Shown: in pieces, positions 3,320 to 48,905 of the stretch
Layout of the letters: each line of letters opens with the position of its first letter
Position numbering within the stretch: position 1 is the stretch's first letter
NCBI RefSeq assembly: GCF_036588685.1
Contig: NC_086379.1
Span: 53,630,001-53,694,000, forward strand
Source of the DNA: Mytilus trossulus
Taxonomy: Eukaryota
Reading direction: 5' to 3'
Length of the DNA: 64,000 nt
Made by a program: the position numbers and the translations under genes
Notes under the pieces: generated by a model
What the model saw: only the letters and a program-made list of their open reading frames with translations
What the model was told of the DNA's origin: nothing
The model's database searches: none

Positions 3320-3387
3320 TAACTATTATATTGTGGTGATACAAATCTACTGAAGCCGGTTATTGACATAGTAGAGTTTTATTTTTA

Positions 3388-8387: not shown

Positions 8388-8595
8388 TGTCATACAAGTG
8401 AGAGGTTTAGCTTACTATAAAAGCAGGTTTGATTTACCATTTTTACATCAGAAAATGCCTATACCAAGTCAGGAATATGACAGTTGTTATCCATTCGTTT
8501 GATGTGTTTTAACTTTTGATTTTGCCATTTTGTTAAGGACTTTCCGTTTATGATTTTCATTAGAGCTCTGTATTTTTTGTTAGTTTATTTTTTGC
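8388..8595 (+). repeat. Dispersed SINE-like family (ccaagtcaggaatatgacagttgttatccattcgttt)
   Basis: Reverse-complement copies at ~42672-42786 and ~51316-51495. Confidence 0.75.
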
Positions 8596-9134
8596 AACAC
8601 AGAAAATACTTCAACTTTATAGTTTTCGATTAGTAATAATCATTGTAAATTACATTGGAAATTTAGGTAAATGTTGCGTATAATTCGAAATTGCGTACAA
8701 TTGAATATATTTTACGCCTATCTTTCTCCAATTATTATATAACTTCGGTAGATCTTTTAATATAGAAATTCTATTTCAAACAGAATAAAGATATGCATCT
8801 TTCAGGTCGATAATCTCTGCAACGGACAAGGCCTTTTGTTAAATGATTTTCAACGGTTTGAAATTCCTCTTTTAGGAATCTGTTGACGTTTTGGAATGGT
8901 CCGATTTATTTAATCTTATCTACAAATTTTTGGGCAATTTGCATTATTTGGTATAATTCTTATGATCCGAGAATTTTTTCAATATATCTTACTGTATTAT
9001 TTTTTTTGAATCGTTAATTTCATCATGCAGTTTATTCAGTTGTGTCTGTAATTTTTCTAATAACCCCTTTCTGATAAATCCCGAGCATGCGCATAAACGC
9101 TTCCGTACAAAGACTGGTTGTATGGTCTTTCTGT

Positions 9135-9392
9135 GCAGACATGAATGATCATATATGGTAATATTTATAAATTAACTGTAAATGTTATAAACGTTTGATT
9201 TTTTTTAAATACTAAGTCTTTTCCACCTCAGGAAAAGAATGAATTACATGTAAGCTGTATTTGGTAAAACTTTAAGGAATTTTGGTCATCATGCTCTTCA
9301 ACTTCGTTCTTTTTTTGGCCTGTTTAAAACTTTTTTGGATTTGAGCGTCACTAATGAGTCAAAATTTAATCCTGGTATCTATGAGTTTATTT
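9135..9392 (+). mobile_element. Retrozyme-like repeat copy with the 3' half of the hammerhead deleted
   Basis: Colinear with 30830-31097. Has gagcgtca-CTAATGA-gtc, then jumps straight to aaaatttaatcctggtatctatgagtttatt. Confidence 0.65.
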
Positions 9393-9552
9393 GTTTGTGT
9401 CATTTTGGTTCTTCTGTATAGTTTCTGAAAGACAGATCGTTCAGGTTAAATATGTGAGTGCTATTAACTCAAATTATCCTACCAATCGGGAGACGATTTC
9501 ATAAAATTCTAACGACTAGGATTTTATCACAAGTCAAAATGACAATTCAGTA

Positions 9553-10012
9553 TCTATAATACTAAAATTACAAGGTCCAATTTGTCAGCCGTCATCAGGT
9601 AAAAACGACAAATCAAAGAATTCAACTTTAAATATAACTAATATAGGGCAATGGTGTAGATTAAAAATTACACCACTCCAGACCCTTTTGTTTTCCACAT
9701 AATTAATATTGCCAATAATTAACAAGTTCCGGGTCGAGTCCGATACCGATACCAATATTATATTCACCTGGCTGTTATACTATTACCTTATTTGTACGTT
9801 CCACATTTGACTGGCGCACCACCAAATGATGTATTAAGCAAACGGGTCATAATCACAGGGTTGACACTCCTAAATTCAATCATTGTCAAATTGTTCCCTA
9901 TTGTAATCAGTAAGACTTTCTAAGATAACAATACGAATACTAAAATAAGGCATACGCATTGTTATATACTTTAATTCAGTCACGGACCCGTGATATCACG
10001 GGTGTGGTCTAC
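9553..10012 (+). mobile_element. Non-autonomous Helitron (~460 bp)
   Basis: Starts a|TCTATAATACTAAA. Has a perfect subterminal palindrome acccgtgatatcacgggt (9986-10003) followed by CTAC|t, one mismatch from canonical CTAG|t. Inserted between A and T with no TSD. Confidence 0.7.
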
Positions 10013-10696
10013 TACTAACGATCAATCTTGGTCGTTAGATATTTTGTTCAAATGAATCCAGATCTGAGCCCCAACCATCTGGGTAGACAAGTTTCCTAAA
10101 AATCCCCGAGACAAAGATTATGAATGGTTCTCATAATATGCAAAAAGGCATCTGAAGAGGGTCAAGTTCTTAGTGATAGTTAGTTACCCATCCTTGATTT
10201 AAGCTGCCATTGACTGAACTCAATTTGTCGCTTGTAGACTGCATAACAAATAAGTAGTTAGGTTGTTAAACTTGTATTTAATCTCCTAAGGTAAATGATT
10301 ATCTGGTTCTCACGTACAAAAGATGAATGGTTCTTACATTTCACGCTACATTTCTACAGCATACAAAAATAAGGAAAATCTTGATATAAATGATACATTC
10401 GTAATAATGGATAAGATAAGGTATGGAGATGTGTCAAACAATAGATAGATGTCTAGAGAAAATGTCAAGCTCTTAATCGCCCCGAGTCTATAAAATTGAA
10501 TACAGTAAACCATAATTAATTTTAATAGAATTTGGGGTAAGATAAAACGCGTTAGATACATTGCTGTCATATTTTAATGAAGAATTATATAGACTTTGAC
10601 CATCATTTTCATGGTTAACTGACTGTCAAACAGCTGAGGGTTAACATGACCTTGGTAATATTTGATGGATAAGTGATAAGTTTTGGCTTTAATTAA

Positions 10697-13491
10697 GGGC
10701 ATACGATACAGTAGAAATCCCTCGTTGATTTTTTCTTGAAATTTTGATAGAAGGTCAATTTCAGTGTGTACTTTTCAAATATGGAAAGAAAAAGGTATCT
10801 TCATGACTTACTTTTTGAGATAATTTGGTTCGAAATTTGCATATTTGGAAGAAAAACCCTGAAATTTCATAAATAAGGACTTTTAGAGAAAGTAACAATA
10901 CTTTTGAACGAAAAGTCATAACTTAACCGGGTTTTTTGTAAAATGTTCCCTGGATCCATAGCATCAACTTTATAAAACAATTTGAAGATTAAACCGATTT
11001 ATAATTTTCCGGATTTAGATTGCAATATGAGAATTAAAGAATTTGACCATTTTTTAACGTCATTTCGGAAGTGCAGAAAAAATTTGATCGTTGATTTTTT
11101 CTAGAAAATTTGGCAGAGTGTTCATGAAACAGTACTTGATTGAAATAGGGGTCCATGTGCTTGTTTTTTCAATAAAAGCCATATACCTTAATATTTTACG
11201 AGGTCTGTCAGTATGGCGCTAAATTACGTTATGTTAAGTTTTAATCGCAAAGACGTCGTATAATCGTTCCCGCCGTACAAGACTGTACTCTCAATTATGA
11301 TTATATGCAGGTGTTCTCAAAAGCGTTGATACTTATCACAAAAACGCATATGATGGTTCCTTGTTAAATGGCAAAACATTTGTGCTAAACATTTACGAAA
11401 CTACATTTGGACAGATTAGTATTTATTGTAAAATTTAGAATAGGGAATGTGTAAAAGAGACAACGACACCACCAAAGAGCGAACATAATTAGAAAAGCCA
11501 ACACCCAGAGGCGGGCTTCAGATGGCCCTTAAATAGATGTGTACTACACATGTAGTTCAATGGAAATAGACGTCACACAAAACTCCAAAACTTGTCTACA
11601 TGTACACGTACAAATGTATAATGATCGTACGGTGAACTTGACTGTCCTTTTGGTAGGGTTTGTCTGAAATTGAACCTTTTTTCGTGTTTCATTGGTTAGT
11701 ACATAAATAGGTTCGATTCGCAGCTACCATCAACTATTTTGGGTATAAAGACTGATAGTAAGGTGTTTATGTCATTATTAATTTTCAAAGTTCATCATTT
11801 TTAATAGCTCATTTCTCATTGCAAAGTGTTTATTATTAAGTTATCTGAACAAAGGGCGGAAAATTTTGACAGCAACATTTCAAACGAAGTGTAGGCTGAA
11901 AAGGGACAACACAGTTGGACTGCCACTGGAAAAGAAAGGAAAGTCGAATAGCAGCAGAAGTTCTTCAATGTAACAGACCATCTACGGATCTGTTAAGAGA
12001 GTTTGAATACGGTTCTTCGACGTACAGGGAAAGTTTCACTCCTCTTACAAAAGGATTTCAGTTTTAACGTTAAATGTCCCATTCCGACAAAAAGAAACCA
12101 AGTAGAGTATAATTCAGGCTTATTTAAAATCATGTGTTTTATTTTTTAACGCTTGAATTTTGGCGATACGTTATTTGTAGAAAGCTAATTTTGTATGCTA
12201 CAATATATATCGTGTTTAACATGTTTTGCTTCTGACATCAGTCATAATATTTTTTTGTTTATCTTCTTAAATATGATTGATTCCCCTCTTCAATCTGTTA
12301 TCATCTATAATACTCCGTAATGATAATCAGAAAATAACAAAAAAAGAATGATTAGTTATGGGAACCTGCAAATTGTTGATAACATATATAAGGTACACCA
12401 TAGTAACAAACCACAAGCATATTCTCTACTGAACATTACCATGCATTAACACATAAGATACAGTTACAGGGTTACAGACTTTTGAAGATCGTATTTTTCA
12501 GTCGTTATCAGCATCTTATGAATGTCTGTAAAATATAATGTGTCTCGTAAAAATAAATGGATCGGTATTTCTCACCTTATCTGTTATTGTTATGTCAAAA
12601 ATACACCATACACATATTACTGATATTTTTAAACTCGGGCAATACTTTAAATCTTTTAACAGTTAGGGATATCATTAATTTAACTGACATAGTTCTTTCT
12701 TCTGTTAACAATTTTAAAGTGTTAACTGACCTTTCGTAAAATACTTCCAAATGTTTTCTGATTTGACTTCGTGAAACCTGTAAGATTTACAAAAAATAAG
12801 GAGATGTGGTATGATTGTTAATGACTATGCAATGCAAATATAAGCCTTTTCCCGTCATATTTTAATCATCAAATATCTCGAAAAGGAGGTCCATGACCTA
12901 TCAATATTTTTTGCGTATTTTGATTCTCAACCAATGCTCCTTTGACCTAAAGTATCAATTTAAAATTCTTAATTTTTTGAATTTCACAAACCCTCACCTA
13001 AGTACATCCTTGGAAAAGCGAGTTCATAGACCCCTCTTTTTTTAGAATGACATTTGGTTTGATTACGTTTGACGAATATTTGTACCAATTTTTATGAAAA
13101 CGTAAGTAGTTCAATTTTAAAAAAATGGATAAATGTACAGGAAAAAAATGACTTTTTTTTTCTACATTCATGAACATTTAAAAAATATGAGTTATTTGTA
13201 AAAATATAATTCATAAATTTATATGCCATTTATATGAAACCAGAAATTACAAATAATTTAGCAAAACACAGCTTTTTAGAATAAAAAATTTCGTATTTTT
13301 GTCAAAATGAAAAATACGGCCACAAATCCTAATTTTGAGTAAATATCCGAAATGTCGACCTCATTTTACTAAAAAAAAAAAGCACATGAAGATATATTTT
13401 TTATTACATATTTGATTTAAACAGGTAAAAAATAACCTGTATGGAAATGTTCATCAAAATTTAAACCGGATCAAAACTGTAGCCTATGCCC
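10697..13491. mobile_element. Kolobok-like DNA transposon (~2.8 kb, non-autonomous or decayed)
   Basis: TTAA|gggcatacgatacagt ... actgtagcctatgccc|TTAA: a 16-bp TIR with 2 mismatches, purine-purine start and TTAA TSD (piggyBac termini normally start CCC). Contains a nested SINE-like piece near 11430-11590. Confidence 0.75.
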
Positions 13492-16464
13492 TTAACAAAT
13501 GTTCCAACTTATGAAGGTAAAATAAATATGTAACATAGCAACAAACGACAGCAAAAACTAAAACAAAAAGCGGACGTGATTGGATACTTGTACATCAACA
13601 AAGATACATTGATTACTCAGTTAATGACATCTAGTTCAAAGCCAATAACAACTAAAACCCCAAAAAATCATGCATTCAATAATTTTCACAAAATATCTTT
13701 ATTGGCTTCGTGTCTGCTTTCATTGTAAATTAAAAGTATTGTTATCATAATAAAAACTATTCATGCAAGCGGATATGCAGTGAAGTTTTCAAATCCGTAC
13801 CGACACAATGTTTACTTTCAGATATTTTCAAATCATTTTTCTTCAATCTGCGCAACAAAAGTATTTGTTCTGATGATGCTGTATTAAAAAAAAATTCGAT
13901 GATTTTGGTAAACAGTTTGAGTAAAATTTAATGAGTCAGCAAATGTCTGATTTAACAAACTTTATCTTTTGTTTTTAAACAAGCAAAATTAATGTAATAT
14001 TTAAAAAAAAAGTACATTATTTAATGAGTTTCTTGCAAAATAAAGACATCCCCGGAGGCAAATTTTATTCCTTCAGCTTAGTTGAAGTACAAATTTTATC
14101 TTTAAAATAACAAAATATTAATGTTTTATAATGTCATCTTTCTAGGCACCTAGGGATTAAAATATTCAGCTTTGTGTCTTCGAAAGAAATCCTATTGAAA
14201 TAATTTATGAGAAATAGAAACATTATGCAAATAAAAGCTATCATGTTTAAGTCGTGTTGGAGCCCGTGTTCATCACACATTTTAAAAAACAAAATGCGTA
14301 TCGAGAGACATGCTAATTTGTATCTAACAAAATGATTAATTTTAGAAGACAAATAGAAATAATGGAATTAAACAACATACATAACAATCCACGGCACTTT
14401 ATAAATCTGTAAGAAACACAACGGAGCCTTTATTTACATCTAGAACATAAAGCATAGCGTTCACGAGTGCTGTGGTTGATACATTCCTGTTAAAATAATG
14501 GAAGAAAAACACAAGGAGCAATACGTTACCATTATGAATAAAACACATATAATACACAGAAACGTAAGGTACAGAAACGTAGTAAACGAAAGGTACAGAA
14601 ACGTAGTAAATACTTTTAAAAAAGTGTTAGAAAAATTCAAAGATTCATTGTAAACAGTTAATTTGATAGTGATGACCATATCAATGATATTCTTGTCAAC
14701 ATAAAGCTGTTGACTACTGGGTTGGTGAAACACTTGGAAAAGAAACCTCTACCAGCAGTGCATCTACTCTATAATTGTTGTAAACGAACTCATACTAAAT
14801 ATATACCAGAATTAACATTTTTTACCTCATATATACGCGCGTTTCGATTACAAAAGATCCATCAGTTATCATTTATTTAAAAGTAAATCGTAGATCTATA
14901 GGTACAAAAACTGTATCAGAATAACAGTCAAAATGTAAGCGTTTTTAATTCAAATGACGTCTATAAAATGCACCAAAAATAATCATAAAAAGAATATTCT
15001 TAGATAATTTTTTTTTATTTAGATTTATATTTTGTAATCTCGATTAATTTATTTTTTTCATATATTGGGGGAAAAAACTATGAATTTTGTACGTCCGATA
15101 TAGAATTTCGTTGTCATTGATTGATAAGTTAAAATTTTGCCTGATATCCACAATGCAGTTATTCAAGAAAGGAGTGGAAATCTTGCTTACACGATTTTGA
15201 CCGTTTATAACAGAGAAAAAATTACATATCTGTAGTCTTCCTGTATTAGTAACGAAACGTTATCTATCTTGATGCCTTGATGAAAGATTGCTGTTTACAT
15301 AAAATCATTCCAAATGGCAAAGTTTTTTATTCGAAAGATATAATACATCTGTGCATCAGCTTTTATGAATTTGTTCGATGATTCTATCCATATTTTATAA
15401 ATGAGCCACCTACTTGCATACGAGAGAGTATAAGGTAAATTAAAATTGAAAGTTTCTTGTAAGTTTGAAAGCAGATCTATTTTGAGAAAGAAGAACATAA
15501 GAAATTAGCAGACTGAGATTAGATAAGAACACACCGTTTTTAAAACGCTAGAATGACAAAAATGTCAGAATGACAAAAACGCATGCCAGATATGTCTTAA
15601 GATATAATAAAATTATAGCTTTCATCCCTTTTAATACTTATAATATTTGCAGCCTTCAGTACGCATTGATATCAAATGTTTTGTGGTAAATGAATTTGCA
15701 CATTTGATTATTGCAGAAATCTAATCGGATGTGTAATTCTGTCGAGTATATTCATTTAATCAGACAAATTGTTTCTTCTTTTTTGTGTTATCTGAGGACA
15801 TTCCCTCGTTATTTGAGTTTACGATATATACATGAAAAACTCTACATTGTATTAGATAACCAGAATACAAAATACCAGATCACATTCCTAAATATTTACA
15901 AAAACTGTTACATCGTTAAGAAGGCAACACATTCAAAATAATCGTGATAAGTGCATCTGATTAAATTTTAATTACACGGAACAGCTGCAAGGAAGGAAAA
16001 TAAAGACATTGTAAACATGCCGAGATATGTAATTAAATTTATTAGTTTCATGAAAATTAAAAGTATTTCAACAATCTTCATTCTTTTTTAATACCTTTAG
16101 GTTTAAAAGACCACACTTCAAACAAACTAGAATCAATGACTTCTTAAGTTAGTGTACATAATTAGAGTACTTCAGAAGCACTTTGTATATTGAGCATGAT
16201 TAACATCTTGTCATCTGTGTTTGAAATATACTTTTGCTGATCCTTACCGTACTAAAGTACATTCAATAAATGTGTATCCGACTTTAGATGCATCGGACCA
16301 GACGCAAGTGAACCACCAATGTTGTTCATATTTGTACATATACAGTATCATTCAGTAATAACTCAGTCTAACAAAATATAAGATGCCATAAACAGCACTC
16401 TGTGAGAAGGGTGATACCAGCCTATAGATCTCTGGTTGTTTTTCTGTCAATGTCGTAAACCGTT

Positions 16465-16660
16465 TTTTTTTAAATCGTAGGGATTCCGCCGAACCCTGTG
16501 TCTCGCCTACATTTGCTGTTAATCGTAGGCTCAACAAAAACGAAGAAAAAAATATAAAAAATATTCCTCTCTATACTATCTTTTGATTGTAAGAAGCTTC
16601 TGTCCAAGCTTGGTTTCTGTTCAAATTTGGTACAAATCAAGGATAGTTTAAGAAAGTTGC
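16465..16660 (-). mobile_element. Probable Helentron/HINE end fragment
   Basis: A T-run, a gggattccgccgaaccc hairpin and an adjacent gtctcgcct motif, followed by tccaagcttgg/tcaaatttgg core-repeat-like motifs. Confidence 0.35.
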
Positions 16661-17354
16661 ATTAGACCGTTGCCTTGTGATTTTGCCTTATTTTATACAC
16701 TTGGTGTTCATCTCTAGATTCGAGCTTTTCCAAACTCATTCTTATGTTATGTCGTTACACCTGATGAGTTTTCGGTGTAAAAGGGAGAATAAACAGTTCA
16801 TAAAACAATTGCCTGTTATATTGGCTTTCAATGTTTTTGCGCTATGTATCCATCCAAAGAGACAAATAATTGCTGTCAGTTTAAAACAAAGAGTTCATAA
16901 TTGTGTAAAAATAGCTTTACTATTTCAACTGTACGTCCATTTTTATTTTTGGTTTAATATGCATTCGTCCCCTAGATAAATTTACAATTGTTCTTTTGGC
17001 AAACAAAATGAACGATAGTTTCCTTTTTTTATTATTATTTCATCTCCTAACTTGACAGCAATACAAGTACACTATTACCTATTAAGTTGAATGCGCTCTA
17101 AAGCAAGTAGATCGACATGGATGTTTTTATTTATTTTGACGCACTTCCGCATATCATTTAGTCAACGCTTAAGCAAGCAAATTAAACCACGAGAGTTTGC
17201 AAATATCAAGCATTTATCTCTATGAAATCAATAGATTCTATTTATAAGTTTGTCTTTTTGTGGTACATAATTAATGTTACGACATTCCTGTCATGGAAAT
17301 TTGTTGGCATTAATTCGTGAAGAGAAATTAGTAATGATAAAAAAAATTCTTAAC

Positions 17355-17570
17355 AAAAGAGAGACGAAAAATACCAAAGGAACAATTATCAAAGTCATCA
17401 ATCGAAAATAAACTGACAAAGCCATGCCTTAAAACAAGACTAACAGACACACAGATAAACAACAGTATTAAAAACACAACATAGAAAACTAATAACTGAG
17501 CAACACGAATCAAAACACAAATTGGGGGTGATCTCATGTACTCCGGAAGGGTAAGCTTCACATGTGTCCC
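17355..17570 (-). repeat. Solo 3' end of the Penelope-like element (diverged)
   Basis: aaaagagagacgaaaaataccaaagg...ggggtgatctcatgtactccggaagggtaagc is the reverse complement of 29440-29646. Confidence 0.85.
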
Positions 17571-18324
17571 CAATGTTGTTTTTGATACATGACTATGACT
17601 AAAAGGAAATTTGGGGTAACGTTAATGAGAAAGCAAATTAACAAAAAAGAACAACCCACACGGCATATTTAGAGCACATAGTCTTCAGGAACCGACAGAT
17701 GTCCATTACAATATCCCAATCTCTAAATCTTGCACACTATATTACCAAGTTGTGATTTTTTTTGCAAAGAACCACCATAAACACCCAAATTCTGTTAATA
17801 ACGATATCATTAAGAAAGGACACAGGACAACCACTGACTATGAAAATTTATACTTATTTCAAAGTGGATTTATGTATATTTCGAAAATAATTATTATAGC
17901 TTGTTACAAAATAAATGATGATATTTTTATTTTATTGTACGTAGTAATCTTTATATCCTGTCATTTGATCTTAGAGCGTGTTTCTTTGTAAATTTAAATA
18001 GAATTTGCTGTAGTGAGACAAGTTTATTTTATGCTTATACGTGTTTGATATTATTGCCAATCAAATAGAGCTTGGCTTTTTCTGTTTAGTTGTGGTATTT
18101 ACGGACTGTTGATGTTAACATATTTTATTGTTCAAAATGACAAAACGATCAGACACAAGTTTTACAACTTAGTACCGTCTTCTCCAAAACAAAACGAAAT
18201 ATACACATTAATTAATGAACGCATCAAATATTTCATACTAACAAACAATTTAAGAATAAAGACATGAAAACAAAAGGAAACTGTTTGAAGCGAATAGATT
18301 TTAATCGAGTGCATCGGACCACAG

Positions 18325-18617
18325 ATGCATTATCACGTTGTGATTGGTTAAACGCCGTCACGTGGTGACCCCCTATGAGACCGTATGGGGTTAGTTAGTT
18401 TCATATGGGGTTCGTGACGCATTAATGGCGACGTCATCTATTAATGTTGTTGTGTTTCGTTGTTTATTTTTCAATAAATTCGTTATACGATTAACCACTG
18501 ACCCCCTACGGATCCATAGTGGGTGAATAAAATTCATAGGGGACTCGGCCTCCGGCCTCAACCCCTATGGATTTTACTAACCCTCTATGGATCCGTATGG
18601 GGTCAGTAGCGAACCAT
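18325..18617. repeat. Long-hairpin element B
   Basis: ~110-nt hairpin at 18497-18607 (actgaccccctacggatccatag.../...ctatggatccgtatggggtcagt), preceded by tgattggtt, gtcacgtg and a shortened copy of the stem. Confidence 0.8.
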
Positions 18618-18627
18618 ATAACTTATA

Positions 18628-19057
18628 ATGTTTTTCAATATTAGCGGAATAAAAATCCTGTCCAAATATCCACTGCTGTTCTTCCTCTTATTGTGTTTAC
18701 ACTGTATAATTCTGACCTTCACATAATTCAAGATTATTTGAACGGTGGAATCCGACATTGTTAATATCGGAAGTGTTGCCATGGAGTTCCACGTGCTCTC
18801 TATTTGTTTGTGTCTCTCGAAGCTTTTCCTAATCTTTGACGTAAAAAGCGCGGGAAATTGTATCATCAATGACAATGATATTACCAGAGAGTAACGAATG
18901 GTATGGAATAAGGGATCCTCAAAGAGACCAAGATGGCGGTTTTACAATGTAAATAATCTTGAAAAATGTGAAGGTCAGGATTATACAGTGCAAACACAAT
19001 AAAAGGTAGGACAGTAGTGGATAGGATAGGGTTTTATTTCCGCTTAATGAAAAACAT
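18628..19057. mobile_element. Fold-back MITE with ~110-bp TIRs
   Basis: 18628-18740 (..agcggaataaaa..ttattgtgtttacactgtataattctgaccttcacataattcaagattattt) is the reverse complement of 18952-19057. Confidence 0.8.
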
Positions 19058-22000
19058 CATCTTGAGTAAACGCGGCTGATATTTATTTTTTTTTGGACAA
19101 AAAACATGATGCCAATTTTACGTGACGGCGACTATAAAAACATTTCTTCTTGCTTTTACCAACACACACTGTTGTTGTTTTATACATTTTGCATGTTATC
19201 TTTTTTATTTAGATATATCATAAACCCTTTTAATTTGGCTTTCAAATCTTACTATTATTTATACAAACTGTTTTTGTTATTACGATACTGCAAAAGACAG
19301 ATGTTTGTTTGAAATTTAGCGAATTGAAAAGGAGTATTGAATTATGAAACACTGTTTGCAAAACTTACTGAAAAAATCTATAATGATTATATGCTCAATT
19401 TAAATTTAATAAGAAACTGATACATTTTTATACTCACATGACCATCTGTCAATATATTAAAATAGTTTGATAAAACAAATATTATAAATAGCCATTGTTT
19501 GTTCATAAAAAAGCTTCTCATTGGCAATCATACCTTATCTTCTTTTTTATATTAACCCATAATTGTTTGTCTCATCAAAAATTATTAAGACTTATTAACT
19601 TGCATATCTATAAATAGACAAGTCTAAATTGCAAACTACGTTAAAACCTATGATTGCGTTGAATAAAAACTGCATTTTTTAGACGGGCGCATGTAAACGA
19701 AATTTCGTTGTAGAAGGGTCTAAATACAGCACGAACAACATTTTCTAAAAGACCAAAAAAGTGAAAAGTATATTTTTACAAAACGCATTTGACTAACAGG
19801 AAAAACAACTGATGTTCTTTAAAAAAAAATCCTGTTGAGTGCCATTGACGATTGTCAATTAAATTGATCACAGGGTGTAAACAATGGATCTTTATATTGA
19901 TTTAATACCAAATAGAAATCAATAAACGTGCTGCAAAGAGTGTAAATCAATTTATATATCATATTGATTGATTGTCGTATGCTTAACGCTCAGTGGAAAG
20001 TGTTTCATTACATATATATCTAACTCTGCTCCATTCTATGGTTTATCTTGTCTATCCGTTCGTATTTTACGTTACAAATTACTAGGCTTCTGTGTAAAAA
20101 CAGGATTTGCCATTTGATTTCAAACCATGTAATGTAGAGATTTCTTTGTTTGTGAAATTTATATTTGATGGGCATTTACTTCCTGTTTGACAATACGATA
20201 AAATTTTATAACATCGCATCAGTATTGTAAAATATCTATATATGCGTAATAATGAGGATTGCACTTTACATGGCATCATTTAATTGTATATTTATTAAAT
20301 TAAAAAGTAATTGTCTTTCTTTTTCTTGGGATCCTTATATTCTGTTTTTCAGTATTGTTGCTGAATACAGTTATACATTTTCAATTTGACCTTTTCCTAT
20401 TTCAGTCTTCCTATATCTATCAGAGACTAATGTTTTTTTTTATTTATGTCTCTAGTCAGTAACATACTGTTGACAGATACTGTGACATAATTTGCATTCC
20501 AAAATGTCACAAGGACTTTAACAAGTTCTTTAATAAGGTAAAAGGTTTATCGCTTATGTAATTAAAAAAAACACGTGCTACAGTTTTTCATTGTCCTTTG
20601 TTTGTTTTTGTCAGAATAAAACATAATAGCGCGATCTGAGCATTTGTCTTTTGGATTAACCTAATCCGCTTTACAGAACCTACGATGTGATCTTAAGTTG
20701 AACCCGTATCATCCTTAATATGACTTTAATTGGCCGCTAGACGATACATTTTAATCAATCATTATAACTTTCCATGCTTAATTTTCATTTTCATTCACAT
20801 TTATTGTATGACAAGTACAAATCTTTCTCCTTGTATCCACATTCCGTGAAACTATGCATTTATCACACAGTCATCATATATGATACTCTTTGACAAATAC
20901 ATGATATAACTTTTAAGTTTAATAGAATCAGCAGATGTGGTATAACTGCCAGTGAGACAACCTTCATCCAAGTTACAATTTGTAAAAGTGTACCATTATA
21001 GGTCATAGTACGGTTTTCAGCACGGAGCCTTGGCTCACACCGAACAGCAAGCTATATAAAAGGGTCCAAACAATGACATATTGTATTTGCAAAAGTAGAA
21101 GTAAAAGGAATTGAACAAAATATTGACATCCTCTCCCTAGATAGATATAAACACATAGTACATTAGATAATGAAACTATAAAGAAATAAAGCAAAATACA
21201 ACTTTAAACTATTACAAAACCTTAATATGCTATCTCAAATAATATAGCTATATCAAAACAAAGAAAATGATTAGAAGGAAATTACTTGTCACGTCTCACA
21301 TTTTAAACATTCGAAAAACACAAGATCTGGCATATCATACGTAAATAAGACAGTAAGAACTAACCCGGTGATTAAAATAAATGCAAAAGGGTAACATATC
21401 GTCATTGATTTTTTGTTTTTTTTGTTGTCACAAATCTTTAACTCTACTTATATAGGAGATTTTGAAACACTTGGAATAAGTAGACGACATCGACTCGTAA
21501 AATTATACATTTGTGTATAGAGCAACAAAGGATCCATCATTGACATAAAATCAATACATGCACATAAACAAACACACAAAAGGCAAATTCACAGCATCAA
21601 GACGTAGAAAAGGTTCCCAAAACACTTAGCGCCGGTTTGAGGGGATGTGTTTTGACAAAATAACTCTGGTATACTTTTTTAGATGTAATATCACCCAAAA
21701 AGATATCACCTAGAAAGTAGAACATATTAAAACAAAAACAAAACAAAAAACAATAAGGCTGTGTGTTTACATCCATATGTTGAATGTTTTCCCGAAGTGA
21801 CATAAGTTTGGCAGTTTTTTTTTTTTCGCATGTTGTTTCGAGGAACAAAACAAATACGAAAGACAAAATTCAAAATATCATGGAGATGTGTATTCAAAAG
21901 ACGAGCACTTTGTTAACATCTGAATGGTTTTATATGAGATATCATAACAATACTTTTGATGTTCAATTCAAGACGACAAAAAAACTCTTTATCACTTATA

Positions 22001-22561
22001 CAGATCAAGGGGAGGATAGGGGAGACGACTGAGTGCTCATAAACATGTTTGAAACTGTCACAATCTTTGTGTGCGTGTTCCAAGTCAAATGCTTTTATTC
22101 GATAGTTGCTGTCGATCATATTATGTTACGCTTATTGTTAACATGTGAACAGCAAACGTTAAGTTAAAAGAATTTCAGACTCCAAAATTGACTCATGCAT
22201 AAACAGTTACTGTATGTTGATGGGTTAAATAATATTTTTGGGCGCTCGATCCTTCCCTAACTCGGAACAGTAGTGTTGTAGTACAATATGTACATAATAT
22301 AAAATCAGTTGTCGACTGTTAGCTGCTATGGGAAGGTCATGCAGTGTAATAATTTATTAATCATTGAAGACGAATTTATTGGTATTTTAATCTGATGTCC
22401 CTAATTTATAGTAAGTCGTCTTATTCTATGTGCGGAGAAAAAAGTTTGTTCTGTTCGTCAATGACTTCATCACAAAAGGCATCGTTTTAGTATTCATTGA
22501 AGAAAGTACATAAGATAGGAAATTTATGCAGACTCATGCTCTGTTATATTGTATCTGTCAT

Positions 22562-25410
22562 AAACATGTTAGTGTCTAGACAACAAAAAACTGGTGCTGG
22601 ACATTCTTATGATAATCATGATTTAGAGAACGTTTTTAGCGTTTAGCTAGGTTATTAACGGCAAAATAGCGAATTCAGTGTAGTAAAACAGTAATATTGG
22701 TAGTGATATAAGTATGTCGAGTTCTTAATTTTATCTTTTATCACTCAAGACGATTTTCTAAAATCTATTTTAACTGGTTAGCATATTCTTCATAATACTT
22801 AAATTGATTTTCTTTGTGGAAGGGCCAATATTTCATTGATGTACACCCCACACCTACTTTAATACATATACTGTTAGTTCAATGTTCTCCTGACTGGAAC
22901 AGAATCAACTAATTTGCGTACGTCATGTTTAAAAGAAACCCAAACATACAGTTTGCTGACAAACATGCCATTTAACGTAAATAAACGACACTATGTATTG
23001 TATATGAGATTAAAATGATAGCAATCAAGAATATTAAACTACATTTTAGATATGCCTATTCCAAGTCTGTAATTCATTGGTCGTTTGATGCCGTTTCTCA
23101 TATTTGGTTTTATTCTATTGGTTCGCACAAATTGTTAAAGTGCTGTGCTGTTCGATGTTAGGGCCTTATACCAGTGTAAATGTTAAACCCCGACACATTC
23201 TCTATTTACCTGTCCCAAGCTAGGTGCGTGTACATTTGTTGTTTATTTCGTTGCTGTATATCATATACTTTTTTTCGTTTAATTGGTTTCCAATTGTGAT
23301 TTTGGCGTCTTTCATAGAAGAGATGCGAAATATATAAGAGGGACAATCGAAATCATAGATATAAAATAAACTGACAACGCCATGGATAAAAATGAAAAAA
23401 AATAACAGACAAATACAAGTACACACGACACAATATAGAAAACTAAAGACATAGCAACACGATTTCCACACAAAACATGTAAGTGTCTAGAAAAAAAAAC
23501 ACCCCAAAAAAACTGGTGCTTAACATTCTTTAATATGGTAATCATGATTTAGAGAACGTTTGTAGCGTTTTGCTAGGTTATTAACGGCAAATTAGCGAAT
23601 TCAGTGTAGTAAAACAGAAAAATTGGTAGTGATATACGTATGTCGAGTTCTTATTTTAATCTTTTATCACTTAGGACGATTTCTGAAATCTATTTTAACT
23701 GGTTGGCATATTCCTCATAATACTTAAATTGATTTTCTTTGTGGAAGGGCCAATATTTCATTGATGTACACCCACACCTACTCCAATAAATATACTGTTA
23801 GTTCAATGTTCTCCTGACTGAAACAGAATCAACTACTTTGCGTAGGTCATGTTTAAAAGAAACCCAAACATACAATTTGTAATGCGGGGTTCACACATTG
23901 CCGATTATTGCTCCCGATTGAGATCAGACAGCAATACGACACGAAAAGTGAAAAGGTCGGATTAGTATCCTCAATTATCTGGAATGTCCTATCATTGTCT
24001 GAACGCATTCGTTTTAGTTCGTAACAGATTCCTACGGATCGGGAAGGGTCCGAATAGTTCGGCAAAGCATCCCGACAGTTAGGTGCGTCCCGTAACATTC
24101 GGGGCAACTCAGCCGATTTTGTCTAGTCGGATTACAATCGTGGCTATGTCGTGACAGATTCTGCTGTATCGGATCGAATTCCGAACAATGTCTTGTGTAT
24201 TCTGGACGGTGTCCTGTGGAACGGGAATGATCCGGAGTAATTTTTCATAGTTGTTTTTCTGCCGATTGAGTCCAGATTGCATCCAGATCTTGTCGATTGC
24301 GAACCGTTTTTTGCCGAAACCGTTCCGAAACAGTCCCGTTATTAATACGAAATTCGTCAATGATACCCACGTCAGAGTCCCGACAATTACAGAATACAAT
24401 ACGACTGAGACCAGACAAAGCCGTTTGCAATGCGATAAAGCGGACTATGATAGGATTACGTTCCGACAGTACTTGATCATCCCGAATATGCCGACAGTTT
24501 TCGAACGGATAACTTCCGTCAGCGTCGGTTCACTGTCCGGTCACTGTCTGATCTCAGTCGGATAAGATTCGGTAGAGTCGGGACGCAGTCGTGACAGACT
24601 CGGTCGAATTTTACCTGGCGAAAAATACAAATCGGATTAGAAGCGGATTCAGAACGGTATTATCGGGACTAATTCGCTTAGAAACGGTTGAATATCGGTG
24701 CTTCCTGAATACTATCTGATTGTTGTCGTGATCAAATTATTTTTTTTACAAATTTAAATTTAAGTTTGAATTTCCATCCACGATTCACAGGATCTTGATC
24801 AGACTTTTAATAAATTTTAATCGGGAATGGTCCTATCAAGAACGGTAGTAAAAATCGTGAATGTGTGACCCCAGCTTAAACAAACATGCCATTTAACGTA
24901 AATACACGACAATATATTGTATGTGGGATTAAAATGATAGCAATCAAGAATATTAAACTACATTCTAAATATATATGCCTATTCCAAGTCTGTAATTCAT
25001 TGGTTGTTTGATGCTGTTTCTCATTTTCATATTTGGTTTTCTTTTATTGGTTCGCACAATTTTTTATAGTGCTGTGCTGTTCGATGTTAGGGTCTTATAC
25101 CAGTGTAAATGTTGAACCACACCACATTCTCTATTTACCTCTCCCAAGCTATGTGCGTGTAAATTTGTGGTTTATTTCGTTGCTGTATATCATATAGTTT
25201 TGTCGATTTAATTGGTTTCAAATTGATATTTATTTGCCTTTCATAAACGAGATGCAAAATATATCAGAGGGACAATCGAAATCATAGATCGGAAATAAAC
25301 TGACAATGTCATGGCTAAAAATGAAAAAAAAAAAAAAAAACAGACAAAAAATAGTACACACGACACAACATAGAAAACTAAAGAATTAGCAACACGATCC
25401 CCAAACAAAA
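22562..25410. repeat. Older tandem duplication of a ~910-bp unit (22562-23472 and 23473-25410, second copy interrupted by a MITE)
   Basis: Colinear match from aaacatgt.agtgtctaga through to the Penelope-like tail, with many substitutions between the copies. Confidence 0.92.
23883..24876. mobile_element. PIF/Harbinger-like MITE (994 bp), TAA TSD
   Basis: TAA|tgcggggttcacacatt ... aatgtgtgaccccagct|TAA. The interior is CpG-rich with recurrent tccg/cgga motifs. It is absent from the paralogous duplicated unit at ~22945. Confidence 0.85.
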
Positions 25411-25605
25411 ATAGGGTGATTTCATGTACCCTGGAAGGGTAAGCAGATCCTTCAATATGTGATTTTTAGTTGCCTCTAGATACATGTGAAGCATGATCTG
25501 CTTACCCTTACAGAACAAAAGAAATCACCATGATTTGAGTGGCGTTTGTTTTACTTTGTCTTTGAATTTTTAAGTTAATATTTTTGTATCATTTTGATTG
25601 TCTTT

Positions 25606-26183
25606 AAAAGAGGGACGAAAGATACCAACGGGACAGTCAAACTCATAAATCTAAAACAAACTGACAACGCCATGGCTAAAAATAAAAAAGACAAACAGAA
25701 ATACAAGTACACATGACACAACATAGAAAACTAAAGAATACACAACACGAACCCCACCAAAAACTAGGGTTGATCTCAGGTGCTCCGGAAGGGTAAGCAG
25801 ATCCTGCTCTACATGCGGCATCCGTCGTGTTGCTTATGTGATTACAAATCCGGTAAATAGTCTAATTCGGTAGGTCAAATTCATGAAAGTGAAGGGGATT
25901 GTAGTTACGACGTAAGAAACATATTCGATATCATTTGTGAAACGGTGATTCCATAACGGTCAACCAACTCGTGATGGCGTCCGTAAAATTTACGAAGGGA
26001 TGATTTCAACTTCACCATTTGGAACTCTTGGTTTAATAGCTTCCTTGTGAGCAGTAACCCTCTATTAAGAAAATCTTGATAGGAAATGCAAGCATGGGAA
26101 TATCGTATCAATTGGGAGATATATACCCCGGATGCAGGTGCTGCTGGCATGTTGCTAATTAGAAATGGAAAGTTCACAATTGG
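25606..26183 (-). mobile_element. Second, shorter 5'-truncated copy of the same Penelope-like element (RT C-terminus plus 3' UTR)
   Basis: ORF 25905-26186 (PIVNFPFLISNMPAAPASGVYISQLIRYSHAC...KFYGRHHELVDRYGITVSQMISNMFLTS) and its UTR are a close inverted match to ~29070-29646. Confidence 0.92.
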
Positions 26184-28074
26184 CAATTTAAATTATATCG
26201 TTTTTCTTTTTCTTTTACTCTTACAGTATCAGTTTTAATTTTTCGACTAGTAAGTTTGAATGTCCTTTTCGTCTCTCTCTTTGATATCCTCTCATATTGT
26301 TTTAACTTTTAAAATGCAAATATAGCACATACAGCGTCAGGATTTTATCAAATAAATCATGAGATCAAAGTTTATTCTTTTCAACTACGTGTCTAGAAAC
26401 ACATGTTCCAGCAAAACTGACGGCTATAATTCAACAGCATTGAAGAAAGAAAAATTAGCTGTCAAAACCAAAAGACAGAAGATGTGTGGGTAAAATCAGA
26501 TGCACTTACATAAGTGCTTTGTAAATCATTGCACTGATTTTGGAACCAAAATAAAATCAGCAGGTATAATGATTGTTTATCACTTGTGAGAATACGAACT
26601 ATTACTTAAAATCACAAAAGCATACAAAATTGACAGCTAATAAATATATCAAAACTTTATTTGAAATTAGAGCGATAAATCTAACAAAGATTTTTCATAT
26701 TAAAAATCTTTTGTCTCTATATTCGTTTATCGTGAACATCTACTGAGCTAGTTATGATTAAAATCAACTCTTCCCTCGGTATAATTCAAATTTCACTGAA
26801 AATTATCAAAGGACGAAAAGTGATAAAAGTAATGAAATGGAAATTACTTTCAGAGATGCTGATAAAAATGACAGATGTTTGCCAAAGACAGACATTTTCT
26901 TTTCTTGTGACGCTGTTGGAAAGCAAACTAAAGATGTAAGCCATTGTGAATCGATGGCAGCTACAAATTCTTGATAATAGAAAGGTTTGAATGGTCAGCG
27001 ACCGCCTTATTTATAAGTGACAACAAATCATTTGTATAATGGAAGGTTAACTAATAACACTGAACAAATATTGTTTCTTTTTCCCTGGGAGAGATCAAAT
27101 TAACATTGATTCTTTCTTATAACAAACGACAGTCCATACTTGGCTAAGAAAATATATCCTGTTTGTCTCATGGGCTTTTAGTTTCTACATTAAATTCTTC
27201 TGTGTCCACTGCTGTCGTAATTCTGGAATATAATATTCGGGTTTAGCACTTGTTAAGAGAATAAATCTTTCAACGAATTATTCAAATTACCAAAAGATCT
27301 TTTTTTGTTTTAAACCATTACCATACAGTTCTCATAAACATAATAATTTTCTTTTCGATGCACATGTCGGTCTCAAAGGAGCTTGAGATAAATTAATAAA
27401 TTGTGTTCTCAAAGCAGTAAGAAAATAAACGACTTCTATATTTTCCTAAGAACTTGTTTTTCCGAAATATCATCCTTATTCATTTCATAGTCAACGTGTT
27501 ACAATGTTTCTGGAAACTATCATACGAGGTGGTCGGCGATTCGTTTAGAAAACAAGCATTCCCGTTGATACAGATTTTAAGTACACACTTGGAGTTGTTA
27601 ACTATTCAAAAATAGAAATAACAAAATACTAAACTCTACAGAAAAACAAATCGAAATGAGCGACCTATGAATTTATGCAACAATTAAAAGACCTTTTTGA
27701 AAATTGTTTTAGTTTATTCATTATAGTCGATGACCAACATTGCACCTATTCAGAGACTCAGTTCGATTTTATTATTTTACTTTCAAACACCTTAGGATAA
27801 CAGCTTGATATTTCAATATCCAATATTTGAAATGCATAAACAATATATATCTGCAGGTTCCCCTTAATTTCTAATTAGGATGTTCGATATTCTTCATTTG
27901 AATTTGGTTCATAGCAATGAATGCCAAATAAACTAATCATAGATACAAGCATTGACATTTTGTATTAGCGCCAGACGTGCATTTTGTCTTAAAAAAAATT
28001 AATACTGGGTTTGATAGTGAATTTAAAAAAATTTACATCTACATGTAGCAATTTGGCACCACTTGTACCCTTTA

Positions 28075-29646
28075 CATTTATTGCTTGATAAACGAATTAG
28101 GTATAGACAATTCACTTGGAAACTTAGCATATACCCTCACGACACTTACCAAAGAGGAAATCCTGGATAATCATAGGTCTGTTCTTTGTTCCTTTGGTAT
28201 TTCAACCAAAGATGAAGAACTGGATCTTCCATCACTGTATTGGATACCTAAACTACATAAGTGTCCTTACAAACAGCGGTATATTGCTGGGTCTTCCAAG
28301 TGCTCCACAAAACCTCTTTCTAAATTATTAACATTCATTTTATCAGCAATCAAGGACGGGCTTGAAACTGCCTATTCTAGAGGTGGCGTGAATCAGATGT
28401 GGATACTTAAAAATTCCAAAGATCTTTTAGAGTACATACAATCTAACTTTCTTTCATCTTGTAACAGTATTAAACATTTGACTTCTCTACTCTTTACACA
28501 AGTATTCCACATTCCAAACTTAAAGACAAATTAAAAGAGTTGGTATTACTTTGCTTCATAAAAAAGAATGGCCAACTTAGATACAAGTATCTTGTCTTAG
28601 GGAAGGATAAATCCTACTTTGTAAAGAATCACTCTGATTCAAACAAAAAATTCTCTGAAACCGATATTATATAGATGCTTGATTTCTTGATTGACAACAT
28701 ATTTGTTACGTTCGGAGGACGTGTTTTCAACAGACTGTCGGCATCCCAATGGGAACAAACTGTTCCCCTCTACTTGCTGACTTGTTTCATTATTATTATG
28801 AGGCTGACTTCATGCAGGAACTTCTTTGGAAGAAAGATAAGAAGTTAGCAATATCCTTTAACTCTACTTTCCGCTATATAGATGACGTTCTTTCACTAAA
28901 CAATTCAAAATTTGGTGACTATGTGGAACGCATCTATCCCATCGAATTGGAGATAAAGGATACTACAGATACAGTTAAGTCAGCTTCATATCTTGACTTA
29001 CATCTAGAAATTGACAATGAGGGTCGGTTGAAGACAAAACTTTACGACAAAAGAGATGATTTCAACTTTCCAATTGTGAACTTTCCATTTCTAAGTAGCA
29101 ACATTCCAGCAGCACCTGCATACGGGGTATATATCTCTTAATTGATACGATATTCCCGTGCTTGCATTTCCTATCATGATTTTTTTTATAGAGGGTTACT
29201 GCTCACAAGGAAGCTATTAAATCAAGAGTTCCAAATGGTGAAGTTGAAATCATCCCTTCGTAAATTTTACGGACGCCATCACGAGTTGGTTGACCGTTAT
29301 GGAATAACCATTTCACAAATGATATCGGATATGTTCCTTACGTCGTAACTACAATCCCCTTTCCTTTCATGAATTTGACCTACCGAATTAGACTATTTAC
29401 TAGATTTGTAATCACATTAGCAACACGACGGGTGCATGTGGAGCAGGATCTGCTTACCCTTCCGGAGCACCTGAGATCACCCCTAGTTTTTGGTGGGGTT
29501 CGTGTTGTTTATTCTTTAGTTCTCTATATTGTGTCATGTGTACTATTGTTTTTCTGTTTGTCTTCTTCATTTTTAGCCATGGCGTTGTCAGTTTGTTTTA
29601 GATTTATGAGTTTGACTGTCCCTTTGGTATCTTTCGTCCCTCTTTT
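28075..29646 (+). mobile_element. 5'-truncated Penelope-like retroelement (probably Naiad clade): disabled RT plus 3' UTR
   Basis: Stitched translation gives LPSLYWIPKLHKCPYKQRYIAGSSKCSTKPLS, motif A (TFDFSTLYTSIPH, after a frameshift), motif B (QQTVGIPMGTNCSPLLADLF), catalytic FRYIDD and a PLE-type C-terminus (LYDKRDDFNFPIVNFPFLSSNIPAAPAYGVYIS*LIRYSRAC...KFYGRHHELVDRY). The ORF stops after the RT with no C-terminal GIY-YIG. A ~300-bp 3' UTR follows and recurs throughout the window. Confidence 0.9.
28085..29348 (+). pseudogene. Penelope-like reverse transcriptase pseudogene
   Basis: The ORF-track pieces 28085-28534, 28749-29141 and 29142-29348 form one RT broken by frameshifts (~28472, ~28727), a TAG at ~28672 and a TAA at 29139. 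The paralogous copy near 26110 (-) has CAA (Gln) at the TAA position. Confidence 0.9.
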
Positions 29647-29892
29647 AATATGTCGAAAACAATCAAGAGATACAATACTGAGGCTTTTAATTTTGTTCGC
29701 CAGGCGCGCGTTTCGTTTTTAAAAGACTTTTCAGTGACATTTGAATAAAAACAGTTAAAATCTCATTGAAGTACGACGTTTAACTGCATTGGTATATGTA
29801 CGAACCACTCAAATCTATAATGGCAAATTCGTAATTAATGGTAAACATAACGCCACAGACGCTAAACAAATCATAAATATTTGGCAGTATTT

Positions 29893-30008
29893 ATTTTCTC
29901 CCAATCTATGACAGTTTTTTTTGTTTTCTCAAAATCTTTGACAGTTTTTTGTTTTCTCCAAATTTAAGACAGTTATTGTTTTCTCAAAATTAATGACATT
30001 TTTGTTTT
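29893..30008. repeat. Degenerate ~30-bp tandem repeat, about 4 copies
   Basis: tgacagtttt(t)ngttttctc(a/c)aaat recurs. Confidence 0.7.
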
Positions 30009-30754
30009 ATATTTAAACGTAATATATACATTTTGTAGAAGAACAATGAGGTTACCTGTATCCCCTCTGATAAACGAGCTATACCTCATTTAGTTAAAGT
30101 GATAATTAAGGTACTTTAAATTCTAAAGAAAGAATTACTTGTTCTTGTAAAGTACACATTATATTTATTTTCTTGCAGTAGACTTAAATGAGGCATCTTT
30201 TTCAACATGTTTGAAATTACTTATCACTTGTTTTACAAGTTCTTATAACTGCGTCATATTTAAGTCATTGCACACCATACAAAAGCATAAAAGTACAAGT
30301 TACTTGTTCGGTTGTCTGATTCAAAATGAAAGATTAAATCTAAAATTCAAATTTGAAGTTAATAAACGTCTGGAAAACTATATGCACAGTTTTGAGATTT
30401 TTTGTAAGCGCTTCAAGTTAATTTACCAGAACAAACTTTGAAAGCACAATAGAAGCATCAAGGTGCAATGCAGGTTATTATCAAATAAAACATCTAAAAT
30501 AAGACTTTATATTTTAAAAATTCAATAAAAAGGAGGTGTGGTAAGGGTCCAATTTGATATTAAAATTGAAGCATGAAGAGAATTCATAAGTATGATTTTG
30601 TAATCTTTAAACTGTATTGTCTATGAAATATGAATATGAACTGGAGTTTAACTGTGACAGACAGTCAGAAGATAGTGTACATACAAAATGTAGTTATTAA
30701 AATCCACGCATGAACAGGAAATATTTACAAATATTACAAGAATATCACAGTGAG

Positions 30755-31097
30755 AGATTGTGGTGAATAATGGCACTGCTGGTGGAAATTTGATTCACTG
30801 AGGGTATCACCATCCCAGCAGTCAGTACTTGTGTGCTGGCATGAATTATCATTGATATGGTAATATTTATAAATTAACCTTTTACCAAACATTTGAATTT
30901 ATGAAATACTAAGGCTTTTTTTTACCTCAGAATAGACAAACATTTTAAGAGACTTGGTCTTCAATGCTCTTCAACTTCATAATTTATTTAGCCTTTTAAC
31001 TTTTGGATTCGAGCGACTCTTATTAGTATTTTTTAGACGAAACGCGCGTCTTGTGTTAATACAAATTTTAATTCTGGTATCCATGTTGAGTTTATTT
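30755..31097 (+). mobile_element. ~340-bp retrozyme-like repeat monomer with decayed hammerhead (31011-31055)
   Basis: Homologous to 9135-9392 (+) and to fragments at 14783-14870, 27925-27990 and 29660-29790 (-). Retains gac-GAAA-cgcgcg-TC, but the CTGATGA core is mutated. Confidence 0.7.
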
Positions 31098-39564: not shown

Positions 39565-40488
39565 AATTATTTCAGTTTGCAAATACTTTTACTCAAACCG
39601 ATGCTAGATGCCGTCTTAAAGTTGCAGTAGGATGAGAGTTCTTTTGTTGTCACTTAATTTAATATGAATTGAGTAGTTAAGCGCTGTTTCTATATTTTTT
39701 TTGAATTTGAAGAGTTCGGTATTTTGTTATTTTACTTTAAACCGTATCCATGGTACTTAATGTGGACACAGAAGTGCTGATAACTGTGGACTGGTGTTAC
39801 TTTTTGAGACAAAAGTTTCACTTTCATAGGCATCTATCCAGTGGTTGAAAATACTCATCATATATACAAGGTTTATATTTTTATAATCAACGATGGTTAA
39901 AAGACTTAATGTTTCGGAAGATTTTTCGCATTCTCCTTGAGTAAATGTGCTGATTATGACCATATCAAAGAATAAATATTCATATTGCACTCGTTTTATT
40001 TGAGAAGTCAAAACACGTTGACTGTATATTTTTAGTCATTTACAGTCACTGACCCGATATCACTTTTCCTCATGAATATTTAAATAGGTTACCGAAATAA
40101 TATTTAATTATTTATGCGACATTTTCAAACTTTTCTTGTTTCCAATGTATACAACGATACTTGGAACGACTCAAACTTGTTTCTGTTATTTTTTTTTTCT
40201 CGAAAAAAACATATCTCAATTGTTAATAATTTTTGTTTGCAACCTATAAATCATTAGGTTTCATGCTTATTGTTGATATTTAAGTCCATATTCAAACGAA
40301 TTCGTTCACTATCGACTGCGGGTTTCAATAGGTAATGAACGTTTCATCGTGTTGTATATTTTTTTGCCTGCATGATATGAGGCCTTATTGAATGGGGATT
40401 TCCCCAGTATTTAATCACATTAAACAACAATTGAAAATGGTTTTTTTAGATTGCAATATAAAGACAAAAAAAAGTGGATTGACCTAAC

Positions 40489-48863: not shown

Positions 48864-48905
48864 GCGTCCGAAGCTCTTTTCTGGATTTACCTTCATCATG
48901 AACGC
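48864..48905 (-). ncRNA. Near-intact minimal type I hammerhead ribozyme motif (probably inactive)
   Basis: The minus strand reads GCGUUC-AUGAUGA-AGGUAAAUCCA-GAAA-AGAGCU-UC-GGACGC. Stem I pairs fully (one G-U), stem II is GG/CC, followed by GAAA, a near-palindromic stem III and a UC cleavage site. The core C3 is replaced by A. It lies in a ~250-bp repeat (48823-49075) distantly similar to the 30755-31097 family. Confidence 0.65.

Follow-up and report, generated by a model that had tools for sequence, protein, structure and literature searches.

Metazoan retrozymes of the non-long-terminal-repeat (non-LTR) type are recognized by head-to-tail units of 150-450 bp that carry one type I hammerhead ribozyme each and have a GC content below 50%. 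A general link between retrozymes and Penelope-like elements (PLEs) was proposed earlier (PMC7229834), and PLEs were suspected as partners because the two have hammerheads in common; section 7 of a 2020 review notes no conserved motif in metazoan retrozymes that points to an autonomous partner (PMC7761336). We analysed 64,000 nucleotides of the mussel Mytilus trossulus (RefSeq assembly GCF_036588685.1, contig NC_086379.1, positions 53,630,001 to 53,694,000; hereafter the window), in which an earlier note had described five decayed copies of a dispersed hammerhead repeat and proposed that it is a retrozyme dependent on the reverse transcriptase (RT) of a retroelement. Comparison with the rest of the genome supports this dependence and allows the RT to be named: directly past a fixed 3' insertion end, the retrozymes carry a stem-loop in common with the 5' ends of Naiads, which points to this hammerhead-free clade of PLEs as the source of the RT.

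The closest described system is the non-LTR retrozyme of Mytilus galloprovincialis (Cervera and de la Pena 2020, PMC7229834), which by its description resembles our repeat in its mussel host, AT-rich units of ~350-370 bp, type I hammerhead, two similar ribozyme families (here families 1 and 2), dispersed and tandem copies, and expression. On the grounds of size, layout and the two similar ribozyme families, our repeat is very probably that published retrozyme; the hammerheads of families 3 and 4 are different, and these two families have possibly not been reported before. About 5,000 motifs were found in an older assembly, compared with 39,450 pattern matches here, and the available passages of that paper describe no fixed end, truncation or partner motif. 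Naiads (Craig et al. 2021, PMC8557442) are alike in the 5' stem-loop, the junction register, the fixed 3' end, 5' truncation, head-to-tail copies, T/A-rich ends and the lack of a clear target-site duplication; the available passages mention neither a stem-loop nor a hairpin. The retrozymes differ from Naiads in having no open reading frame (ORF) and in possessing a hammerhead, and they share the 5' end of their presumed partner, whereas non-autonomous Chlamys elements share 3' ends (PMC8557442).

The non-LTR retrozymes of Xenopus (Li, Clavereau and Pollet 2026, bioRxiv 10.64898/2026.07.22.740005) are likewise described as non-autonomous dependants of PLEs, with likeness to the pseudo-LTR (pLTR) regions of PLEs; in the available parts of this preprint no mollusc is sampled and Naiad appears merely as a clade name. 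The mussel retrozymes differ in that their partner is ribozyme-free and that the common part is one covarying stem-loop beside the insertion end. In Poseidon PAc of Anolis (Frangieh et al. 2024, PMC11167929), reverse transcription likewise starts internally at a stem-loop, the targets are AT-rich and insertions end on the start site; this element is autonomous, belongs to another clade, carries its own minimal, protein-assisted hammerhead and has two start sites giving a tail, whereas no tail-length second end was seen in the mussel retrozymes. A search confined to open-access papers, and taking in neither repeat databases nor the supplements to PMC7229834 and the 2026 preprint, found no paper linking retrozymes to Naiads, and the words retrozyme, Naiad and hammerhead are absent from PMC10294476. 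The retrozyme class and its mussel member were already known; the fixed 3' end with 5' truncation and the Naiad stem-loop appear to be new.

Insertion ends and the stem-loop common to retrozymes and Naiads

Genomic units of the repeat agree with the metazoan non-LTR retrozyme type in unit size, head-to-tail layout, hammerhead and GC content. Sixty complete units measured 333-374 bp with 35-40% GC, arrays within the fetched stretches held 15-26 hammerheads, and no LTR layout was seen around the retrozyme loci. The tandem head-to-tail arrays that the earlier note had suggested looking for were found elsewhere in the genome. Loci L035, L028 and L077 were dropped before the counts below because they overlapped others.

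At 69 loci chosen solely by an intact hammerhead core, 5' ends were scattered over the unit and 3' ends fell at +42..+56 from the cleavage site in 59 (mode +46, n=28); of the other 10, some were arrays that ran beyond the fetched stretch, and the rest belonged to family 2 or were divergent, so that the reference no longer aligned to them beyond the cleavage site. Terminal units stopped just before the stem-loop in family 2 (13/13), family 3 (17/17, at ~+33) and family 4 (14/14, at ~+40), and four long arrays stopped at the equivalent point. Across the four retrozyme families, two Naiads and two ribozyme-free mini-arrays described below, the fixed 3' ends lie ~5-9 nt before the stem-loop. A fixed 3' end combined with 5' truncation is what target-primed reverse transcription would leave if it began at a fixed position. 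Among copies chosen by the +1..+35 segment, none of 30 begins at the cleavage site and 29 retain at least 24 upstream bases, indicating that the template was a circle or an uncut transcript and not a cleaved linear monomer. Nor was an excess of 5' ends at the cleavage site found among the 69 loci (~5/69).

When one natural unit of each of the four families was compared with a full-length Naiad, matches were found only at the Naiad 5' end (63-71 nt, 82-87%, E 1e-14 to 1e-18), the homologous part being the ~65-nt stretch directly past the retrozyme fixed 3' end; the retrozyme body and ribozyme had no match in the two Naiad units. In long Naiad copies this stretch directly follows the 3' end of the upstream copy in 3/4 of those fetched (L131 gave no match), and the retrozyme stem-loop is in register with the Naiad's own 3'/5' junction. 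Context up to the Naiad start codon is also retained in the retrozymes. In a second Naiad family the motif is present but interrupted by an additional hairpin. The motif can also be recognized by eye in published bivalve Naiads, and its core occurs 13,760 times in the genome (control 0). Outside the close pair of families 1 and 2, the stem-loop is the best-kept part between retrozyme families, at 80-88% compared with ~70% or no match elsewhere. An alike fold is found in the four retrozyme families and two Naiad families, with folding z-scores of -3.8 and -4.1 in the Naiads. In the stem-loop alignment 98.3% of cells are paired, compared with 35-56% in slid controls, and 5/22 pairs are changed on both sides. 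Naiads and families 1-3 also have the word GGTA in common, 14-20 nt ahead of their 3' ends; this is suggestive, but the word is short and absent from family 4, and was not used as evidence. A terminal cis element and a junction register common to the ribozyme-free Naiad name the RT partner, and we consider it very probable that Naiads mobilize the mussel retrozymes. As far as sequence can tell, the shared stem-loop and the fixed 3' end with 5' truncation fit a non-autonomous dependant of Naiads.

Long Naiad copies of this genome contain ORFs of ~1000 amino acids (aa) with an N-terminal GIY-YIG endonuclease (recognized by eye) and, in both families examined, a DKA motif; it is by these features, as defined in PMC8557442, that they are assigned to the Naiads. 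The second family has 55% aa identity to the first, and a Naiad of this genome is by eye near-identical to the published Naiad_Mgal. The hammerhead descriptor matched neither Naiad unit on either strand. A search with the Naiad endonuclease returned the same family only, among the 150 candidates scored out of 3,106. Two ribozyme-free arrays, L141:740-1656 (7 units of 131 bp) and L142:520-940 (units of 140 bp), contain nothing but the Naiad_Mgal-like family's 3' tip and 5' stem-loop, and their last units stop where the Naiad itself stops at its 3' end; they are possible minimal non-autonomous Naiads.

Hammerhead versions, arrays and transcripts

The earlier note had reconstructed its ribozyme jointly from broken copies, a step that proved needless, since an intact, exact 35-nt core already stands 2,204 times in the genome (1,076 + 1,128; control 0); the 39,450 matches of the looser core pattern compare with 13 in the control. 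Its consensus was nearly right, except that the 3' arm of stem I in intact copies reads UGGCGU, not UGGCGC, and that stem II has 4 bp. Three intact copies matched the Rfam model RF00163 (Hammerhead_1) across its whole length at 32.5-33 bits (E ~1e-4), just below the gathering score of 34, in keeping with the proposed type I assignment, and their core, stem II and stem III agree with the Rfam consensus. Loci of families 3 and 4 gave no match to RF00163 at E<=1. Families 1 and 2 have one core in common, the family-3 pattern has 3,849 matches, and the exact family-4 core occurs 684 times.

In intact genomic copies CUGANGA, GAAA and UH stand in type I order, and stems I-III are supported by covariation, both as the earlier note had expected. 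The core columns C, U, G, A, G, A, GAAA and UC are invariant across the aligned hammerheads; across the versions 98.4% of cells are paired, and 8/14 pairs are changed on both sides in 9 distinct rows (1/500 shuffles), with stem II of family 4 misaligned in this alignment. The palindromic stem III is maintained by covariation, its eight bases forming five different palindromes in five versions, and in family 1 its folding energy is +2.4 kcal/mol as a hairpin and -13.3 kcal/mol as a two-molecule duplex. The persistence of the palindrome through five versions favours dimers as the predicted cleaving form; a monomeric mussel repeat self-cleaved in vitro at ~0.1/min (PMC7229834), and dimer-only cleavage is therefore not established. 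The label "minimal" has to be given up: stem III has a second covarying pair and a tetraloop, 2 bp with a tetraloop are the ordinary invertebrate helix III (PMC7229834), and minimal hammerhead motifs of PLEs are without helix III (PMC7761336). By its predicted structure the ribozyme belongs with the classical type I hammerheads of animals and differs from the minimal form of Penelope elements. An extended stem I shows up when families 1 and 2 are folded to minimum energy, but these folds do no better than shuffles (z +0.8, -0.2), and no tertiary contact is claimed.

A fifth hammerhead type, with other stem III palindromes, was seen at L192:1472-2219 (two copies 578 bp apart), L188:2915-3035 and L125:3360-3420; these loci may represent another element. 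Within-array identity exceeds identity between loci, at 98.7% versus 94.0% in family 2, and reaches 99.96% within arrays. One family-2 array of ~50 units with a 355-bp period lies at C1:269562-287974, as judged from the listed motif places.

Expression was followed in four RNA runs, which may come from a sister species. At 86% likeness, the family-1 unit collected 4,438, 5,559, 7,097 and 3,108 reads from 8.7, 8.3, 7.3 and 12.7 million records. Over the stem-loop one strand was in 2-11-fold excess in three runs, and this is the ribozyme strand if the libraries are of the usual stranded type; in the unstranded run read depth drops ~threefold at the fixed 3' end point. Loose read ends at the stem-loop carry mostly family-2 letters, and the family-1-specific stretch is symmetrical between strands. 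We infer that family 2 makes specific RNA and that family 1 is mostly passively transcribed. Reads run through the cleavage site and also through the +46/+47 junction, where their starts do not accumulate. Junction reads, which the earlier note had suggested as a test for circles, cannot serve, because ligation at GUC^UGG recreates the exact genomic sequence.

Retrozyme copies and other repeats in the window

The five pieces of the earlier note were present where it had placed them, with the letters it had described. Of 48 natural family-1 units, 46 went into a profile that matched all five (E 1.6e-73 to 9e-6), bearing out that they are homologous, and added two further copies, at 39737-39850 (-) and 48893-49086 (-). 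Each of the five is broken. No match of this profile to the reversed window was obtained at E 10. The copies, with the stem-loop remnant and the Naiad of the window, are as follows.

9127..9392, + strand: decayed family-1 copy, 5'-truncated and reaching the fixed 3' end (profile match 9127-9385, E 7e-46); hammerhead 5' half at 9343-9360 with G5 altered, then a ~34-nt deletion spanning the cleavage site
14628..14867, - strand: decayed family-1 copy crossing a unit junction (profile matches E 2e-22 and 9e-6); hammerhead remnant 14867-14834 (A9 and stem II altered), +1..+46 segment, Naiad-type stem-loop and body remnants
27926..28004, - strand: short 5'-truncated family-1 copy (profile match 27930-27996, E 8e-9); hammerhead 3' half through to the fixed 3' end, G12 and palindrome altered
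28072..29646, + strand: high-copy Naiad Penelope-like element, 5'-truncated and frameshifted, comprising the RT region and the 3' untranslated region (UTR), 96.5% identical to full-length L133; its family is the one proposed to mobilize the retrozymes
29693..29791, - strand: decayed family-1 copy (profile match E 3e-13); the hammerhead, 29740-29697, is present over its full length, with changes in G8, stem II and U16.1
30770..31097, + strand: longest copy, nearly one family-1 unit (profile match 30770-31093, E 1.6e-73), arranged as in transposition, from stem-loop through body and hammerhead to the fixed 3' end; the catalytic core is scrambled in its 5' half, and the cleavage site follows 31050
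30770..30822, + strand: remnant of the stem-loop common to Naiad 5' ends, outer 5' arm truncated (profile alignment)
39737..39880, - strand: sixth copy, old, family 1 (E 6e-10); unit +14..+156, decayed stem-loop, no hammerhead
48830..49086, - strand: seventh copy, family 4 (profile match E 4e-13); different, near-complete hammerhead at ~48907-48864 (C3 and palindrome altered), ending at the family-4 fixed 3' end

None of the seven copies passes the hammerhead descriptor, every one being broken, and an Rfam scan of the window reached no hammerhead model at E<=10; its 19 other Rfam matches, all under the gathering scores, were treated as chance. No ORF of 120 aa was found within any retrozyme copy of the window. 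The longest copy, which the earlier note had taken as a ~340-bp monomer at 30755-31097, is indeed a retrozyme copy, but its homology begins at ~30763-30770, and relative to the 355-370 bp unit it is truncated at the 5' end and has lost internal sequence; with its core broken it is a dead fossil and not a working monomer. To judge by these alignments, all seven mussel non-LTR retrozyme copies in the window are dead fossils, with no working monomer among them. Since the genome has about 39,000 cores, finding a handful of decayed copies is unremarkable.

The window Naiad has no 5' stem-loop because of its 5' truncation, and its family has 35,247 first-look candidates in the genome. It sits between two retrozyme pieces; physical linkage was considered and rejected as crowding, since no Naiad 3' end printed for L102-L130 abuts a retrozyme. 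Other 5'-truncated 3' pieces of this family or its relatives (77-95% identity) lie at 25601-26206 (-), 39333-39562 (-), 25257-25451, 17346-17556, 23318-23476 and 35-131, and 3' pieces related to the second, Naiad_Mgal-like family at 8374-8593 (+), 51314-51542 (-) and 42670-42781 (-). Unrelated repeats of the window are a 38-bp tandem array (35364-36045), a 22-bp array with inverted halves (3340-4206), ~490-bp tandem units (54131-55784) and an 836-bp duplication (51635-53191). In addition, 187-nt inverted repeats (84%) at 53661-53847 and 56697-56883, ~2.8 kb apart, enclose short tandem repeats and possibly delimit a non-autonomous DNA transposon.

Copying of the retrozyme and alternative explanations

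We propose that a Naiad copies the retrozyme circle, and give the full chain of events a probability of roughly 60%. A head-to-tail array would be transcribed, and each type I hammerhead would cleave the transcript, probably with the aid of pairing between two palindromic stems III. The ~350-370 nt unit would then be circularized by a host ligase. Circle formation has been published for the mussel element, and circles are the dominant RNA form in mussels (PMC7229834). The Naiad RT-endonuclease would bind the ~65-nt stem-loop and nick AT-rich DNA, and cDNA would start internally, at a point ~6-7 nt upstream of the stem-loop and 33-46 nt past the cleavage site. The RT would go on to read through the ligated cleavage site and around the unit until it dissociates, giving insertions whose 3' end is fixed and whose 5' ends are scattered, and now and then a long array. 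Protein binding, the priming site, the circle as template and dimer cleavage are the parts of this chain that we infer. On a wider interpretation, to which we give even odds, retrozymes would be chimeric RNA parasites that join a classical hammerhead to the RT-recruiting 5' stem-loop of the ribozyme-free Naiad. The circle would offer, in a single unit, both the junction of 3' end and stem-loop and an endless template, so that the Naiad RT could start at an internal site and keep rolling. In this view the ~65-nt stem-loop is the hitherto undescribed cis signal for retrotransposition of Naiads, and with ~20 upstream bases it would suffice to mobilize any small RNA.

Several observations weigh against copying of a circle by Naiads. 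In the only PLE assayed in vitro, the protein worked mainly on uncut RNA and did not need the hammerhead (PMC11167929). Target-site duplications were not found, the longest shared flank word measuring 4.7 nt compared with 4.5 nt in controls, with 0/59 at 8 nt or more. The count of two-sided pairs in the stem-loop does not go beyond shuffles (58/500, and 253/500 in another test), these changes stem from few independent lineages, and folding is weaker in families 3 and 4 (z -0.8, -2.0). Only two Naiad families were examined, and the Naiad-type stem-loop is absent near the fifth hammerhead type in 3/3 loci. Homogeneous arrays can arise also through unequal crossover. Finally, no pile-up of read ends at the cleavage site was seen in the four RNA runs, and go-back joints of 339-356 nt fit circles and tandem read-through alike.

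The strongest competing explanation, which we regard as unlikely, keeps the Naiad partner and the stem-loop and takes the uncut head-to-tail array transcript as template, circles being by-products and the hammerhead a passenger for transposition. It draws on the same Poseidon work, in which insertion by the protein was unaffected by hammerhead mutants (PMC11167929), and on the existence of ribozyme-free mini-arrays with the stem-loop; the reads crossing the cleavage site and the absence of starts there (0/30) fit uncut RNA equally. Against it stand the predominance of circles among the RNA forms in mussels (PMC7229834) and a hammerhead that covaries strongly across families whose bodies have diverged to ~70% or less, which indicates that the ribozyme is under selection in the retrozyme.

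It is much less probable that the repeat is a solo pLTR or satellite derivative of an autonomous, hammerhead-bearing PLE, with its Naiad likeness due to a common ancestor. Xenopus retrozymes match the pLTRs of PLEs (bioRxiv 10.64898/2026.07.22.740005), PLE clades other than Naiad carry hammerheads (PMC8557442), and our survey of PLEs in this genome was confined to the Naiad clade. However, among 67 upstream flanks no two had a common boundary sequence, and the single one that enters RT-like sequence belongs to a locus with RT pieces on both sides; neither Naiad unit has a hammerhead, and the retrozyme body and ribozyme are unmatched in them. Least probable of all is that the shared stretch is a Naiad-derived internal promoter or relic and that the copying is left to a different RT, from a LINE or from another PLE: internal promoters are known in Penelope and Chlamys where pLTR and body meet (PMC8557442), context up to the Naiad start codon is retained and strand-specific reads are strongest over the stem-loop, but the compensatory changes indicate a folded structure, reads run through the +46/+47 junction and their starts do not accumulate there, and a promoter would not explain the register of fixed 3' ends before the stem-loop in four families, two Naiads and two mini-arrays.

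The evidence for Naiads as partners of the mussel retrozymes names a hammerhead-free clade, defines a cis element and predicts the priming site within a few bases. Two questions are thereby made testable, namely which RT moves animal retrozymes and whether an RNA circle serves as a template of retrotransposition. If the proposal is true, the stem-loop would be the first RNA signal for Naiads, which dominate bivalve genomes.

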